From Candidatus Woesearchaeota archaeon (GTDB lineage: Archaea; Nanobdellota; Nanobdellia; Woesearchaeales; UBA9642), in the NCBI GenBank assembly GCA_003599145.1, contig QZIT01000005.1:512330-576329 (forward strand): 64,000 nt of DNA, written 5' to 3'. Within the stretch, counting starts at the first letter, position 1, and the number at the start of each line of letters is the position of its first letter. This document shows positions 5,358 through 10,973 of this stretch, piece by piece. The position numbers were made by a program, and so were the translations under genes. The notes below the pieces were generated by a model that did not search any database, was not told the DNA's origin, and was given only the letters and a program-made list of their open reading frames with translations.

Positions 5358-5558
5358 ATGAAAACACTTACCTTAAAAGTAAAGGGAATGCATTGCAAAA
5401 GCTGTGAAATGCTAATAGCAGATACTGTTGGAGAAATTGAAGGCGTAAAAAAAGTGCAAAGCTCCTTTAAAGATGGAAAAGTAACGGTTATTGCAGAAGA
5501 CTCTACAAGTGAAAATGCTATAAAACAAGCAATAGAAAAAGAAGGTTACAAACTTTGA
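5358..5558 (+). CDS. copZ: heavy-metal-associated (HMA) copper chaperone, CopZ-like
   Basis: 66 aa; GMHCKSCE metal-binding CxxC in ferredoxin-like HMA fold; AGGTGA Shine-Dalgarno 8 nt upstream. Confidence 0.85.
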   Translation: MKTLTLKVKGMHCKSCEMLIADTVGEIEGVKKVQSSFKDGKVTVIAEDSTSENAIKQAIEKEGYKL

Positions 5559-6469
5559 AAACCACGATTTACGTTCCGGATATCGAATGTGAAAGCTGTT
5601 CTAAGTTAATCAGCAGAAAATTAAAGCATAAGGAAGGCATCAACCAGATTTCAATAAAGCCAGATAGTGTGGATATTGATTATGATGAAAGCAAAATAAA
5701 GCCAGAGCAGCTAGTGCAAACGATAAAAGATGCTGAGTTTAGAGCAGGGCTAGAGCCGTTTGAAAGAAAAACATTCAAAGAGCGATGGAGAGATTTTAAA
5801 GAAAATAAAAAAAAATATCATCTGGAATTAAAAGGAATAGAATATGCAGCATTCATCTTTTTAATACTCACTGCCTTGGAAGCAATTGCTTACTTTGGCT
5901 TTCTCAAAACACCCACGTTCTTAACCAACTATGGCTGGTGGTTTTTTTACCTCAATATTTCCATTACAGCCATAAGTTTTGGTTTATGGCACATTTTTGC
6001 GTATAAAACAAAAATTACCTGCATGGTAGGCATGATGATAGGAATGACTCTAGGCATGCAAACAGGCATGATGATAGGTGCTATTTTGGGAGCAACAAAC
6101 GGCTTCTTTATAGGCGCAATGACTGGCATGATTTTAGGGGTAACCGTTGGCATCATTGCGGGAAAATGCTGCGGCATTATGGGCATTATGGAAGGCATGA
6201 TGGCAGGCCTTATGGGCGGTACGATGGGCCCGATGATATCGCTCATGATGTTTTCAGACCACTTGCTCTGGTTTATGCCGGCATATATGATCATTAACCT
6301 GCTGATTATTGCTGGATTGTCATATATGATGTACGAAGAAGTGGTTGAGTATAAAGAAGTAAGAAAACAACCGCTTGACTTTTTAACCATTGCATCGCTT
6401 TGCATTATCGTTGCATTTGTATTAATTATGATTATATTATACGGGCCAAAGGCGGCATTTTTGAGGTGA
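5555..6469 (+). CDS. HMA domain fused to Met-rich polytopic membrane domain (candidate copper permease)
   Basis: 304 aa; N-terminal HMA with CESC; TTG start overlapping copZ stop (tTTGA); TM region with period-4 Met/Gly repeats GMMIGMTLGMQTGMMIGAILG...GIMGIMEGMMAGLMGGTMGPMISLMM plus a CC pair. Confidence 0.65.
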   Translation: MKTTIYVPDIECESCSKLISRKLKHKEGINQISIKPDSVDIDYDESKIKPEQLVQTIKDAEFRAGLEPFERKTFKERWRDFKENKKKYHLELKGIEYAAFIFLILTALEAIAYFGFLKTPTFLTNYGWWFFYLNISITAISFGLWHIFAYKTKITCMVGMMIGMTLGMQTGMMIGAILGATNGFFIGAMTGMILGVTVGIIAGKCCGIMGIMEGMMAGLMGGTMGPMISLMMFSDHLLWFMPAYMIINLLIIAGLSYMMYEEVVEYKEVRKQPLDFLTIASLCIIVAFVLIMIILYGPKAAFLR

Positions 6470-6473
6470 TACA

Positions 6474-6977
6474 ATGAAAGGAAAAAAAATGATTTTATTT
6501 GGAGCAATTGCTATAGTGCTTTTTGTATTGGCGTTTTCATTAAAAAGCTATGTTATTGCAACACCATATTCTGCATATGCTGAGAACACAGAAAATCTGC
6601 AAAACACCGTGAGCAATGGAGAAGTGCAGACAGTTAAGCTAAGCTTCGATAATTACGGTTACGTGATGGAGCCATCTACCTTGAAAAAAGGAATTCCTGT
6701 AAGAATGGAAGTCGATTTAAGCACCGTTACTGGATGCATGAGGGATGTTGTTATTTCTGCATTTAATGTGAGAAGATATGTAAGCTCCGGAAACAATATC
6801 ATAGAATTTACGCCTGATAAGACAGGAACATTCAACATCATGTGTTCCATGGGCATGGGACGAGGAAAGTTTACGGTTGCTGAAGCTGATGGAACAGCAT
6901 CAAGCTACATCGAACAGGCTCCTCTTGGAGGAAGCTGTGCTGCTGCTGGCGGTGGATGCGGATGCGGAGCAAGGTAA
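6474..6977 (+). CDS. secreted cupredoxin-like beta-sandwich protein with C-terminal Cys/Gly-rich tail
   Basis: 167 aa; signal/TM anchor; EPSTLKKGIPVRMEV...FTPDKTGTFNIMCSMGMGRGKFTV resembles cupredoxin strands and Cys/Met loop; tail [16 protein letters not shown]; GAGGTGAT SD upstream. Confidence 0.5.
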   Translation: MKGKKMILFGAIAIVLFVLAFSLKSYVIATPYSAYAENTENLQNTVSNGEVQTVKLSFDNYGYVMEPSTLKKGIPVRMEVDLSTVTGCMRDVVISAFNVRRYVSSGNNIIEFTPDKTGTFNIMCSMGMGRGKFTVAEADGTASSYIEQAPLGGSCAAAGGGCGCGAR

Positions 6978-7294
6978 AGTATTTTGTTATTTTGATTATT
7001 TTACTCACAGCACTCCAAGCCTGTGAAAATAACCTCGATGAAAAAACAGTGCAAAGAGTGGATGTATTGTATGAGCACACCGTCTTGATGAAACAGTTGG
7101 GAACACCAAAACAACTAGAACGAATAGGTTTAAATGCAGACTACATATTGGACAGTTCTGGATTGGCACCTGAAGACAAAATAAATGCACTAGAAAACGC
7201 GTATAATATGCCTTCAAGCGGAAACTATAAAGAAAGGATAATAAAATTAGAAGAAAAAATGAGCATCATGATGCAAAATTGGGGTGTAGAATGA
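6956..7294 (+). CDS. small lipoprotein (lipobox LQAC)
   Basis: 112 aa; hydrophobic signal ending in Cys; overlaps neighbours by 22 and 16 nt, consistent with operon. Confidence 0.45.
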
Positions 7295-9444
7295 AAAAGG
7301 AATTTGCAATAACAGGAATGCATTGCGCAAGCTGCTCAACATTAGTTTCTAGAGCTTTAGAAAAAACACCCGGAGTGCAAAGCGCAAATGTTAATTTGAC
7401 AACAGCAAAAGCAACAGTAGAGTATGATGAAAAAACAGTTTCTGAAAAAGAACTCATTGCAGCTGTTGAAAGAAAAGGGTATGGAGCGCTTCCTTATAGC
7501 AAAGAAGGCCATGAAAAAAAACAAAAAAGAGACTTGCAAAAATTAAAAACAAAATTTTTGATAAGCTTAACCTTTGCAATACCTGCATTTTTGATAGGTA
7601 TGGTGTTTATGTGGCTTGGAATTATGATCCCCTTTCAAGAGTATATTCTCTGGTTTTTGGCAACGCCTGTACAATTTTTTGTAGGCTGGGAATTTTATAA
7701 AGGAACATTCACGGCAATAAAAAACAAAAGTGCAAATATGGATTCCTTAATAGCCATAGGGACAACTGCTGCATACGCATTCAGCGTCTATGCTGTTCTG
7801 TTCAATCCTGAACTCGGACAGTATTTTGAAATATCTGCCATTTTAATTACGCTTGTATTGATGGGCAAGCTTTTGGAAGCAAACGCAAAAGGAAAAACAT
7901 CTGATGCTATAAAAAAGCTCATGGCATTGTCTCCCAAAACAGCAACCGTTATCAGAAAAGGAAAAGAAATAGTTATTCCTGCAGAGCAAGTTATTGTTGG
8001 CGATATTATTATTGTAAAACCAGGAGAAAAAATTCCTGTAGACGGCATTGTTGTCGAGGGAAATTCTGCTGTTGATGAAAGCATGATAACAGGGGAAAGC
8101 ATTCCTGTGGAAAAGAAAAAAGGAGATAAGATTATAGGCGCAACTGTGAACAAGCATGGAAGCTTTATGTTTAAAGCTACATCCGTAGGAGAACACACTG
8201 CGCTTGCACAGATTATTAAATTAATAGAAGATGCCCAAGGAAAAAAAGCACCCATACAAAGATTTGCAGACACTATTTCTGCTTATTTTGTTCCTATGGT
8301 TATAGGCATAGCAGTTATTGTTTTTTTTAGCTGGCTTGCTCTTGGAAAAGAATTTTCTTTTGCATTGATAACTGCAGTAGCTGTTTTAGTTATTGCATGC
8401 CCTTGTGCATTAGGATTAGCTACACCTACTGCCATCATGGTAGGCACAGGAAAAGGCGCTAAAAAAGGCATTCTCATTAAAGGCGGTGATGCTCTGGAAA
8501 CAGCGCATAAACTAAAATACATTATTTTTGACAAAACAGGAACCATCACGCACGGAAAGCCTGAAGTTACTGAAATTTTAGGAAGCAAAACATTGCAGAT
8601 AGCTGCATCTATAGAAAAAAATTCAGAGCATCCTCTCGCTGAAGCCATAGTAAAAAAAGCAATGGATGAAAAAGTAGTGCTTACCAAAGTAAAACAGTTC
8701 AAGGCAATTCCTGGTTATGGAGTGCAGGGAATGCTAGGAAAGCAGTATTTTCTAGGCAATCAAAAACTCATGCAGATGAAAAAAATCAGCATTGAAAAAT
8801 TTCAGAAAAATATTGATGAGCTTGAAGAGCAGGGAAAAACAGTCATGATTCTTGCTGATAGCAAAAATGTTTTAGGAATTATTGCTGTTGCAGACACCAT
8901 AAAAGAAACATCACGAGAAGCAATAAGAAGATTGCAGGAAATAGGCTTGCAGGTGTATATGATAACAGGCGACAATCAAAAAACAGCAGCGGCAATTGCA
9001 AAACAGGCAGGAATAAACAATGTTTTTGCAGAAGTTTTGCCTGAGGATAAGGCAAAGTATGTAAAACAACTGCAACAAAAAGGAAAAGTTGCCATGGTTG
9101 GAGATGGCATCAACGATGCTCCTGCTCTTGCCCAGGCAGATATAGGCATAGCCATGGGCTCTGGAACAGATGTTGCCATGGAATCAGGCAATATTGTTTT
9201 GATGAGGAATGATTTACTCGATGTTCCTCGTGCAATAACGTTAAGCAGGCAAACCATGAAAAAAATAAAACAGAATATGTTCTGGGCATTGTTTTACAAT
9301 GTGTTAGGCATACCTATTGCAGCAGGATTATTATATCCATTTACCGGTTGGCTATTGTCGCCTATTATTGCAGGAGGAGCAATGGCATTGAGCAGTGTAA
9401 GCGTTGTTTCAAATTCCCTGTTATTGCAGCATAAAAGATTATAA
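7279..9444 (+). CDS. copA: Cu+-exporting P1B-type ATPase
   Basis: 721 aa; N-terminal [14 protein letters not shown] motif in TM6, [15 protein letters not shown]; likely true start ATG 7291 (MKKEFAITG). Confidence 0.92.
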
Positions 9445-9483: not shown

Positions 9484-10023
9484 ATGAACCAAAAACAGAT
9501 AGGCATGATTGTTATTTTGCTTGGTATTCTCTTGGGCATTTTTGTATACGCTGCAAAAGTACGCTCTGACAACGCAGCAGAGGCATTGACAGCAGCAACA
9601 GGAAGCTGTTTTTTAGAAGATGGCACTTGCCTGCACGAATCAGGAAGCACCTTTTTTCTTTTAGGGGGTATCATTGCAGCGGCATTGCTGATTTTAGGAG
9701 TGTATCTGTTCTTTTTTGACAAAACTCAGACACTATTGGTAAAACAACATGCCATGGTATCGACTGCATTAAAAGAAGCGAAAAAACATGAAAAAGCAAA
9801 GGATGAATTTAAGGCATTTTTATCAGGATTTACAGACGAAGAACAAAAGATTATTTTAGCGATTCATGAACAGGAAGGCGTACAGCAGTCAACCTTGCGG
9901 TATAGATTGGGAATGTCAAAGGCAACGTTGTCTTTGTTACTGCAATCACTAGAGAAAAAGGACATCATTTCTAAAAAAGCAGAAGGAAAAACCAATAAAC
10001 TGTATTTAAGGAAGAAATTTTAG
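9484..10023 (+). CDS. membrane-tethered winged-helix transcriptional regulator with extracytoplasmic Cys-x6-Cys-x-His loop (candidate metal sensor)
   Basis: 179 aa; two TM helices flanking GSCFLEDGTCLHESGS; C-terminal MarR/TrmB-like wHTH (QQSTLRYRLGMSKATLSLLLQSLEKKDII). Confidence 0.55.
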   Translation: MNQKQIGMIVILLGILLGIFVYAAKVRSDNAAEALTAATGSCFLEDGTCLHESGSTFFLLGGIIAAALLILGVYLFFFDKTQTLLVKQHAMVSTALKEAKKHEKAKDEFKAFLSGFTDEEQKIILAIHEQEGVQQSTLRYRLGMSKATLSLLLQSLEKKDIISKKAEGKTNKLYLRKKF

Positions 10024-10973
10024 TCTGCAATGACATGCAATGCAGGAAATCCCGTATATCCAAAATATTCATAGTACCTTAAAACATCTTTGAATAATTT
10101 TGCAATTTTTTCCAACTCATCAAGCAAATGCACCAAATTTTCAACAATAATTTCTGTTTCAAAATCTGCTCCGCCTATGGAATCATTTATTTGATAAAAA
10201 TAGCGGTGATTTTTCAGATATTCAAAAAGCTCCTTGTTTCTTTTTGTAGAACGCAGATAAAAATCAACTCTATATCCCTGATAGCCTAATTTAGTAAGGT
10301 TCATATCTGTTTTATAGCCTACAATGACCTGTTCAACCTCTAATTTTTTTATTCTTTTTCTCACGGTTTCAACAGAAACACCGACTGCTTTTGCAACTTC
10401 ATGCAAGGGCTGCCGTACATCTTTTCCGTAAGCATGAATTATTTTTTCATCAATGTCGTCGTGGTGTATCTCCTGATTATCCCCAGAAGTTCTTTGAATT
10501 TTATAATTAAAATTATCGAGAAGAAACGTTTTATTGAAATTGTGGACAGGAGAGTAAATGGCAATTTTGTATTCTGCTATTTGTTCTTTGTAGAGTGCTT
10601 CTATCTGATCCCAAATAGGAGGAAATTCTTTCGTGTGCTTTATTCCTACAAAAAATGCCAAATCCCATTTTCCGTGCAATTTGGCAATAGTCCATATTTG
10701 TGGTATTTGCAAAAGATACGTGTAAAAATCATTTTTTTCTTTAAGCGTCATGTACTGCCATTTGATATACACTCTAAAGGTCATATAGCCAAATTTGGAC
10801 ATATCTGCTATTAAGTGCGTTTTTCTTAGAATATCCTGCTGCTGAAGTCTTTGAATTCTGTAAGACGTTGTTTCAGGGCTCTTGCCTATTCGCTTTGCTA
10901 GCTTATTCAAAGGTATGGCTGAATTCAATTCCAATTCTGTCAAAATCTTCTTATCTATCAAGTCTACAGACAT
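10020..10973 (-). CDS. tandem-duplicated Lrp/AsnC-family transcriptional regulator
   Basis: 317 aa; two HTH_AsnC-like segments (IDKKILTELELNSAIPLNKLAKRIGKSPETTSYRIQRLQQQDIL and IDEKIIHAYGKDVRQPLHEVAKAVGVSVETVRKRIKKLEVEQVI), each followed by a RAM-like domain. Confidence 0.7.
   Translation of the reverse strand: MSVDLIDKKILTELELNSAIPLNKLAKRIGKSPETTSYRIQRLQQQDILRKTHLIADMSKFGYMTFRVYIKWQYMTLKEKNDFYTYLLQIPQIWTIAKLHGKWDLAFFVGIKHTKEFPPIWDQIEALYKEQIAEYKIAIYSPVHNFNKTFLLDNFNYKIQRTSGDNQEIHHDDIDEKIIHAYGKDVRQPLHEVAKAVGVSVETVRKRIKKLEVEQVIVGYKTDMNLTKLGYQGYRVDFYLRSTKRNKELFEYLKNHRYFYQINDSIGGADFETEIIVENLVHLLDELEKIAKLFKDVLRYYEYFGYTGFPALHVIAD

Follow-up and report, generated by a model that had tools for sequence, protein, structure and literature searches.

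A probable new kind of Cu(I) pathway across the prokaryotic membrane: a seven-helix protein with methionine ladders encoded next to copZ

How does copper cross the cytoplasmic membrane of prokaryotes by means other than P-type ATPases and resistance-nodulation-division (RND) pumps? Such routes are poorly known, and a review from 2020 names as importers only CcoA-like proteins of the major facilitator superfamily (MFS) and the uncharacterised CopD/YcnJ type, adding that further importers probably exist (PMC7558416). The question is raised anew by a gene at 5555..6469 in a stretch of 64,000 nucleotides (nt) from Candidatus Woesearchaeota archaeon (assembly GCA_003599145.1, contig QZIT01000005.1, positions 512,330 to 576,329, forward strand); this whole stretch is called the window, and coordinates refer to it. 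In the original prediction, which was made from the sequence alone, the product was described as a heavy-metal-associated (HMA) domain fused to a Ctr-like, Met-rich membrane domain and as a candidate copper permease. We report that the protein probably forms a membrane pathway for Cu(I) of a new kind. The open reading frame (ORF) lies exactly where it had been placed, contains verbatim both peptide strings quoted for it, and is organised as follows (aa, amino acids; TM, transmembrane helix).

5555..6469, plus strand: membrane-protein gene under study, 304 aa, HMA domain followed by a 7-TM domain rich in Met and Gly
5555..5752, plus strand: N-terminal HMA domain, aa 1-66, CxxC motif C12/C15 at nt 5588..5599
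5753..6001, plus strand: basic linker, amphipathic helix aa 74-83, TM1 aa 89-116 and TM2 aa 122-149, as given by AlphaFold2 with DSSP, conservation and covariation
6020..6247, plus strand: core with Gly zipper and Met ladders, TM3 aa 156-182, TM4 aa 184-206, TM5 aa 208-231
6263..6442, plus strand: TM6 aa 237-264 and TM7 aa 276-296, then the conserved G297-P298-K299

The methionine and glycine pattern and its conservation

Pfam assigns aa 4-62 to the HMA family (PF00403; E=5e-9, 36.8 bits against a cutoff of 24.8), which together with C12/C15 and the seven-helix model described below bears out the predicted order of a CxxC HMA domain and subsequent TM helices. Besides HMA, the Pfam scan of the 304-aa protein returned no domain, and in searches of NCBIfam and of PDB sequences all matches were confined to the HMA part. 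The membrane part carries 13 successive Gly residues at a period of four (159, 163, ... 207), a number that none of 20,000 composition-preserving shuffles of aa 156-235 reached (shuffle maximum 7), and the 16 G-x3-G pairs of the same segment exceed the shuffle maximum of 11. The 8 Met i/i+4 pairs were matched in 181 of the 20,000 shuffles (p ~0.009). The predicted period-4 spacing is thus present for both residues; the Gly register is the statistically extreme feature, whereas the Met periodicity alone is modest. It is conservation, and not periodicity, that gives weight to the Met pattern.

Conservation was read from an alignment of 110 diverse homologues with 27-59% identity to the window protein. 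Eleven columns are invariant (M161, G163, M164, M168, G183, G214, M220, M224, G225, M227 and M231), and conservation is at least 90% for M160, M209, M216, E213, N182, P298 and 14 further Gly; for the three Met among these it reaches at least 98%. In the same alignment D235 is kept in 92 sequences, H146 in 81 and E91 in 96 of 108, and Y150 is also conserved. Position 156 is Cys in 93 and His in 7 homologues, position 213 is Glu in 103 and Gln in 7, and the member from Methylococcus capsulatus has His at both; these two positions vary only among ligand-type residues. The Met residues fall into two classes: M172, M173, M212, M215 and M232 are freely exchanged for Leu, Phe or Ile, while the ten conserved ones (the seven invariant Met plus M160, M209 and M216) are essentially never replaced by Leu or Ile, the most conservative substitution, which argues for selection on the thioether itself. 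Homologues lacking the Met periodicity, which had been named beforehand as evidence that would speak against a copper permease, were not encountered, since the motifs are kept family-wide across the 110 sequences.

The gene starts at a TTG that shares the bases TTGA with the copZ stop codon. In three orthologous loci the corresponding junction reads ATGA, ATGA and GTGA, with a GAAGG-like purine run upstream, and the N-termini of homologues line up with the TTG of the window protein. Because the NTGA overlap is kept and the N-termini align, the translationally coupled start proposed earlier is well supported. An ORF on the opposite strand, 5947..6507 (minus, 186 aa), is rich in PIIMP/PIMP repeats; we rejected it as a gene, because the periodic Gly/Met codons of the plus strand account for it as a shadow. 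Such an antisense sequence is carried by database protein P0242, probably as the result of an assembly or gene-calling artefact.

The family is large. We obtained 1273 homologous clusters at 90% identity with E<=1e-3; at 50% identity there are 648 clusters, 115 of these below 1e-30. A scan with one genome per species confirmed 258 loci, of which the best 80 belong mostly to DPANN archaea (Woese-, Nano-, Pace-, Micr-, Aenigm- and Iainarchaeota) but also take in Patescibacteria/Parcubacteria, a few metagenome-assembled genomes (MAGs) of Proteobacteria, and M. capsulatus. The occurrence in DPANN and in the candidate phyla radiation (CPR) suggests cross-domain transfer among ultra-small groundwater organisms. 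Many members without an HMA domain keep a mini CxxC in their N-terminal tail. In the databases, the members are named only 'hypothetical protein', 'cation transporter', 'HMA domain-containing protein', 'copper chaperone CopZ' or 'P-type ATPase', the last of which is a mistaken label. One 'cation transporter', from a Candidatus Woesearchaeota MAG, is identical to the window protein itself, and the member of M. capsulatus Bath (AAU90882.1 / Q602T0) is a 'putative membrane protein'. The open-access papers searched by accession and for the topics DPANN/CupA/cupredoxin and methionine ladder or relay make no mention of the 7-TM family, nor does any of them mention AAU90882.1 / Q602T0. Hence, the family is widely conserved, yet undescribed, which agrees with the earlier statement that no described prokaryotic family was known to combine these parts.

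Predicted fold and topology of the membrane domain

The AlphaFold2 model, calculated with the alignment of homologues as input, reached a mean predicted local distance difference test (pLDDT) score of 96.1 and a predicted template modelling (pTM) score of 0.90. It consists of the HMA domain and seven long helices, which DSSP places at 89-116, 122-149, 156-182, 184-206, 208-231, 237-264 and 276-296; the linker behind the HMA domain is well ordered and forms a short amphipathic helix (aa 74-83). Structure prediction, which had been suggested as a check of the earlier proposal, thus gave a confident membrane bundle, but one of seven helices instead of the three of a Ctr protein.

Covariation was analysed by mean-field direct coupling analysis (DCA), a rough method, on 454 sequences with an effective number (Meff) of ~286. 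The couplings 127-237, 131-241, 138-248 and 145-255 place TM2 parallel to TM6, while antiparallel packing is indicated for TM3/TM6 (168-247, 172-244, 175-240), TM5/TM6 (212-254, 218-250) and TM4/TM5 (187-231, 205/206-216); a further cluster at the outer face links I111 with D235 and S234 with I294, L295 and Y296. These clean helix registers support the seven-helix bundle independently of AlphaFold2. Among the residue pairs named by covariation are M168-I247, M172-Y244, C205/C206-M216 and G183/G187-M231. Hence M168, M172, M216 and M231 come to lie at helix interfaces within one subunit, which argues against Met side chains that face the lipid. In helical geometry at 100 degrees per residue, the TM5 set M209/E213/M216/M220/M224/M227/M231 stays within an arc of ~80 degrees over 22 residues, and this Met stripe would, as modelled, be long enough to span the bilayer. 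C156, M160, M164 and M168 of TM3 form a second, slowly rotating stripe.

One explanation of such a protein would be a divergent prokaryotic member of the Ctr (SLC31) family with a trimeric central pore of Met rings, as its MxxxM and GxxxG motifs recall. Indeed, the Ctr-type combination of MX3M and glycine zipper is present, with M164-x3-M168 and M220-x3-M224 invariant; however, the helices that carry the motifs differ and the motifs are far more numerous. Ctr membership was rejected on helix count, predicted topology, profile search and fold searches, and we regard the chance of it as negligible. No match to Ctr (PF04145) was found at E<=0.1 for the window protein or at E<=1 for 55 membrane-only members, and no structural similarity to Ctr1 was detected. 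Sequence and fold are unrelated to Ctr1, which has three TM helices per subunit instead of seven and lacks the fused HMA domain. Furthermore, Ctr1 is oriented N-out/C-in (PMC6437178), while the window protein is probably N-in/C-out, and in place of the two Met triads at the outer mouth of the Ctr1 trimer we find bilayer-long Met ladders on TM3 and TM5. The Ctr-likeness of the original prediction therefore does not hold in the sense of family membership.

Other described families did not account for the membrane domain either. A profile built from a membrane-only alignment yielded only low-complexity chance matches in the PDB (pyridoxal kinase, E=2e-4, and an ARID protein), and membrane-only profiles gave only weak glycine-zipper matches in Pfam. 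For the Pfam families Gly-zipper_YMGG, _Omp and _OmpA, the window protein had no match, and 16 of 55 members had weak ones (best E=0.007). By model and profiles, the membrane domain appears to be without a described sequence family and without a solved structural relative.

Several features bear on the orientation in the membrane. The HMA domain should be cytoplasmic, because there is no signal peptide and the linker that follows it is very basic; with seven helices behind it, the C-terminus should then be outside. In three proteins of the family a Cupredoxin_1 domain is fused C-terminally to the membrane domain, without an extra TM helix after TM7, and one of them has a SurA_N-like domain between the two parts. 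SurA_N-like domains are typical of extracytoplasmic chaperones. P0233, a metagenomic protein of 499 aa, combines the HMA domain, the first five helices of the family and one further TM helix with a HisKA_3/HATPase_c kinase, i.e. an even number of helices between two cytoplasmic domains, as the proposed topology demands by parity. Cupredoxin fusions, kinase fusion and the charge bias of the partner protein described below all point to an HMA domain inside and a C-terminus and cupredoxin outside. In this orientation, C156, K204-C205-C206 at the inner turn, H146, E91, E262 and E213 would cluster at or near the cytoplasmic face, and N182-G183 at the outer turn, D235 and G297-P298-K299 would lie at the outer face. 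Another metagenomic protein, P0135 (257 aa), is an apparent chimera of HMA, TM1-4 of the family and the C-terminal winged-helix part of the operon regulator, and may be either a real deletion fusion or an assembly artefact.

Copper genes around the family and the CupA-like partner

The gene neighbourhood gives the metal. In the window, the following genes surround the membrane-protein gene (wHTH, winged helix-turn-helix).

5358..5558, plus strand: copZ, 66-aa HMA metallochaperone (Pfam HMA E=4e-14, matches to CopZ-type NCBIfam models)
6474..6977, plus strand: CupA-like cupredoxin gene, 167 aa, with N-terminal signal anchor, Cys88...Cys124-x-Met126-x-Met128 and Cys-rich tail
6956..7294, plus strand: small ORF, 112 aa, with a lipoprotein-like signal (...LTALQAC)
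7279..9444, plus strand: copA, P1B-1 Cu(I)-exporting ATPase with an HMA-type N-terminal metal-binding domain
9484..10023, plus strand: membrane-anchored wHTH regulator, DUF7343/MarR-like (Pfam DUF7343 E=3.6e-9)

The predicted copper setting is confirmed by CopZ and a P1B-1 CopA in the same operon. CopA scores 666.8 bits with TIGR01511 against a cutoff of 397, its translation shows the CPC, YN, MALSS and DKTGT motifs, and this P1B-1 assignment defines the metal as Cu(I), or possibly Ag(I). The copA ORF opens at TTG 7279; ATG 7291, preceded by GGGGTG, is the likelier start. With respect to the predicted position between copZ and copA, copZ is indeed directly upstream, but the CupA-like gene and the small ORF precede copA. 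The CupA-like partner, which is the strongest contextual clue, had been missed.

The recurrence of the arrangement was counted over 81 distinct related loci, with CupA-like and CopZ genes scored within 1.5 kb and CopA within 4 kb on the same strand. A CupA-like gene adjoins the family gene in 68 of them, copA is near in 66, both occur together in 57, and a small CopZ gene is near in 52. Neither a CupA-like gene nor CopA was found nearby in four loci, namely the Methylococcaceae-type L055, L057 and L060 and the Woesearchaeota contig L075. Some loci have two CupA-like genes near the 7-TM gene (L046 and L059 from Parcubacteria/Patescibacteria; L020, L021, L053 and L061).

In a phmmer search of the PDB, the CupA-like product matched Streptococcus pneumoniae CupA (2mry/4f2e, E=2e-8) and the cupredoxin-type metal-binding domain of pneumococcal CopA (4f2f, E=1e-6), with its Cys and CxMxM ligands aligned to those of pneumococcal CupA, so that it belongs to the CupA type; its Pfam Cupredoxin_1 score of 25.8 bits is slightly below the cutoff of 27. 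The ligand codons are nt 6735..6737 (Cys88) and 6843..6857 (CxMxM), and C88, C124, M126 and M128 are invariant in 66-67 CupA-like neighbours. An N-terminal hydrophobic segment resembling a signal anchor was found in 60 of 66 of these proteins, and an excess of K/R flanks it on the N-side in 33 cases against 9 on the C-side. The CupA-like protein is therefore probably extracellular and a partner of the 7-TM protein, as judged from these sequence features. It ends in a Gly/Cys-rich tail (nt 6927..6974), and many neighbours (L005-L081) end in GGSCGxxGGGCGCGG[R], a tail that might bind additional metal, signal anchoring or take part in redox reactions.

The Cu(I) chaperone CupA of pneumococci is anchored in the membrane and has a bis-thiolate site (S1) as well as a Met-rich one (S2); it is described as working in the cytoplasm, where it supplies a cupredoxin-type metal-binding domain of CopA, and as occurring in a few streptococci only (PMC7558416). 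Shared with the downstream ORF are the cupredoxin fold family, the C...CxMxM ligands, the N-terminal anchor and the cop operon with CopA (PMC7558416). In contrast, the CupA-like domain here is predicted to be extracellular, CopA is of the HMA type, the apparent partner is the 7-TM protein, and many CupA-like copies carry the CGCG tail. In the Methylococcaceae-type proteins, which are without a CupA-like neighbour, a Met/Cys-rich C-terminal tail, presumably on the outer side, is found (e.g. EMACGAMM, GMGSMPSMPGMEGM, MDAMPAMPGMGMPG), so that these proteins seem to carry their outer Cu(I)-binding element in cis.

A Cys-rich, extracellular partner could also be taken for the client of a thiol/disulfide electron relay like CcdA/DsbD, in which the 7-TM protein would keep the Cys sites and CGCG tail of the CupA-like protein reduced via the HMA CxxC. 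The cytoplasmic CxxC together with C156 and C205-C206 fits this idea. Nevertheless, the membrane Cys all lie at the cytoplasmic helix ends and are not invariant (85%, 64% and 77%), the invariant residues are Met and Gly, which are unable to carry electrons, and no match to a DsbD/CcdA profile was obtained, so that we consider such a relay very improbable.

Equally slight, in our view, is the chance of a MerT/MerC-like importer of Hg(II) or another thiophilic metal. The HMA domain and the vicinal CC pair recall MerT/MerP, and NCBIfam MerTP_fusion was matched at E=5e-5. However, this match covers the HMA part only (aa 3-63 against profile positions 122-184; 23 bits against a cutoff of 180) and not the MerT membrane domain, so that membership in MerT was rejected. 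Neither merA nor merR turned up in the loci whose genes were examined, and nearby there is a CopA of the Cu(I) type together with a homologue of CupA; moreover, ladders of Met only would favour Cu(I)/Ag(I). As an organisational parallel, the system of MerT/MerP (and MerC/MerF) remains instructive, for it comprises an outer binding protein, membrane Cys pairs, a cytoplasmic HMA acceptor and a resistance operon. The membrane domain of MerT has three TM helices with a CC in TM1. Homology is thus limited to HMA, MerT being a protein of 3 TM helices based on Cys and not on Met, and the outer partner here is a cupredoxin and not an HMA protein; no reductase was seen.

The wHTH gene at 9484..10023, present within 5 kb in 23 of the 81 loci, is the probable regulator of the operon. 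Its product has two N-terminal TM helices around an outer loop C-x6-C-x-H, and the pattern G-[ST]-C-x6-C-[LV]-H is kept in almost all of the 21 homologues that were aligned from related cop loci. Such a protein resembles a one-component regulator that is tethered to the membrane and may sense extracellular metal directly. This bears on the idea that the 7-TM protein does not transport at all and serves as a membrane Cu(I)-binding module, either as sensor or regulator (acting e.g. on CopA or on the membrane-bound wHTH protein) or as a buffer, catching Cu(I) that enters the bilayer and handing it to CopZ. With its HMA domain, Met/Gly helices and HisKA_3/HATPase_c kinase, P0233 seems to use the Met/Gly membrane domain as a sensory ligand-binding input, and the many Met would allow multi-site binding. 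But an output domain is missing from the window protein, a regulator with its own conserved extracellular Cys2His loop is already at hand in the operon, and sensor kinases often borrow transporter-like domains. Bilayer-long ladders with metal sites on both faces would also exceed what a sensor needs. We judge a non-transporting module to be improbable.

The small ORF 6956..7294 begins before the CupA-like gene ends, and its stop codon shares the bases ATGA with the probable start of copA (ATG 7291). There was no Pfam match and no homologue in 84 related loci, and it is uncertain whether it is part of the copper system; at locus L001 a 49-aa ORF stands in its place. The operon regulator is convergent with 10020..10973 (minus, 317 aa), a protein with two AsnC-type HTH modules (Lrp/AsnC-like tandem) for which no link to the copper genes was seen.

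Proposed direction of transfer and known copper systems

Given these partners on both sides, a route for Cu(I) through the 7-TM protein can be proposed. Inside, the CxxC of the HMA domain would swap Cu(I) with CopZ and stand next to a ligand-type cluster of C156, C205-C206, H146 and E213 at the inner helix ends. Across the bilayer would run the ladders C156/M160/M161/M164/M168 on TM3 and M209/E213/M216/M220/M224/M227/M231 on TM5, packed tightly by the 13-glycine zipper. Outside, the pathway would meet the secreted CupA-like cupredoxin with its Cys2Met2 site, in place of which the Methylococcaceae would use the Met/Cys-rich C-terminal tail. Cu(I) could then move stepwise by ligand exchange from the outer chaperone to the Met ladder, the inner Cys/His/Glu, the HMA domain and finally CopZ. 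We infer Cu(I) binding and transport as well as the topology of the 7-TM protein, and accept the 'permease' reading of the original prediction as plausible.

In our estimation, it is fairly likely that the protein serves as a conduit for Cu(I), in whichever direction. The conduit together with the inward direction is a more tentative claim, standing somewhat below an even chance. In its complete form, i.e. a Cu(I)-specific transmembrane conduit of an undescribed seven-helix fold with passive inward hand-over, we put it forward as a working proposal that is nearly as likely to be right as wrong. A new prokaryotic class of Cu(I) channel or permease, as a functional analogue of Ctr1 on an unrelated seven-helix fold with membrane-spanning Met ladders, partnered by an extracellular CupA-like chaperone or, in methanotrophs, by Met-rich tails, is quite possible, but we would lean slightly to the other side. 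A Met-lined path for Cu(I) has precedents in Ctr1, where two Met triads of the trimer form the selectivity filter (PMC6437178), and in CusA, with its relay of Cu(I) over three transmembrane pairs of Met (PMC8092243).

We lean towards inward transfer because there is no ATPase and no invariant intramembrane proton relay, and because the thiolate sites, which are the strongest, are inside. E213 is the only conserved intramembrane carboxylate and can be replaced by Gln or His, which weighs against proton-driven export. By analogy, the inward logic may be that of Ctr1/Atox1 and MerP/MerT.

The opposite direction needs to be weighed against this. As an outward component of copper detoxification, the protein would be an H+/Cu+ antiport exporter, or an accessory that takes Cu(I) from CopZ via its HMA domain and passes it, alone or with CopA, to the CupA-like protein, which would hold or dispose of it. 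In most loci, one tightly coupled gene string joins the family gene to CopZ and the exporter CopA, the acidic residues E213 and D235 are conserved, and a dedicated copper importer seems hard to rationalise in small-genome hosts; moreover, CupA of S. pneumoniae is needed for copper resistance (PMC7558416). However, the protein has no energy-coupling module, and Methylococcaceae members lie outside any cop operon. A shift of Cu(I) from bis-thiolate to thioether-only sites is thermodynamically uphill, as established in coordination chemistry, so that transfer from the bis-thiolate HMA/Cys sites to thioether-only sites would go uphill without energy input. Furthermore, CusA transport depends on the proton relay D405/E939/K984 (PMC8092243), whereas E213 is Gln or His in some members. 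An outward role is thus unlikely in our view, albeit one to be taken seriously.

Several observations weigh against the proposed inward Cu(I) conduit. The Gly stripe of TM5 lies ~140 degrees from its Met stripe, a separation at which the Met face might, in principle, point to another subunit or to the lipid. C205 and C206 of the proposed inner cluster are Cys in only 70 of 110 (64%) and 85 of 110 (77%) homologues. The three cupredoxin fusions that speak for the topology are each single clusters, and for one of them no close full-length relative was found. The silence of the literature on the family counts here as well. DPANN and CPR organisms are not known for a high copper demand, and an importer within a copZ-copA detoxification operon is counter-intuitive. 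For the latter there is a precedent in PcoD/CopD, an apparent importer inside a resistance operon (PMC7558416).

With Ctr1, the 7-TM protein shares the conserved MxxxM in TM helices, the glycine-zipper packing and the absence of an energy module (PMC6437178). Further parallels are a Met-rich extracellular capture element, represented here by the CupA-like partner or the Met-rich tails, and the presumed hand-over to Cys-based cytoplasmic chaperones. CusA resembles it in the stepwise TM Met proposed to shuttle Cu(I)/Ag(I) and in an extracytoplasmic Cu(I) chaperone as partner (PMC8092243). Nevertheless, CusA is a 12-TM RND trimer with the D405/E939/K984 relay, while the present protein has 7 TM, no such relay and no homology to it. 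CopD/PcoD-YcnJ and CcoA (CalT) are likewise candidates for copper uptake through the inner membrane, and PcoD is the product of a resistance-operon gene paired with the outer Cu-binding protein PcoC (PMC7558416). CopD (8 TM) and CcoA (12-TM MFS) nonetheless belong to families unrelated to the 7-TM protein, without profile matches. In our reading, the present system would be a membrane pathway for Cu(I) that is lined by Met and served by a chaperone on either side, with a fold and family that had not been described.

If true, the proposal would supply one missing Cu(I) route across the cytoplasmic membrane in archaea and bacteria, including M. capsulatus, and CupA-type chaperones would extend far beyond the streptococci and to the outside of the cell. 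The family combines a confidently predicted fold with an unusually explicit lining of sulfur-bearing residues, and shows conserved gene linkage to three partners, CopZ, a CupA-like protein and CopA. Since a homologue exists in M. capsulatus Bath, a cultivable, genetically tractable and copper-dependent methanotroph, the hypothesis is directly testable. The corresponding gene of M. capsulatus str. Texas (L055:4722-5753; Bath orthologue AAU90882.1/Q602T0) encodes a protein without HMA, which has instead an N-terminal domain of ~100 aa with a CC motif, and its C-terminal tail, EMACGARMMEGG, is predicted to be periplasmic. This gene lies outside a cop operon in a locus without copper context, and its neighbours, as read from their translations, are presumably Hsp33 (hslO), MsrA and HAD-type genes.

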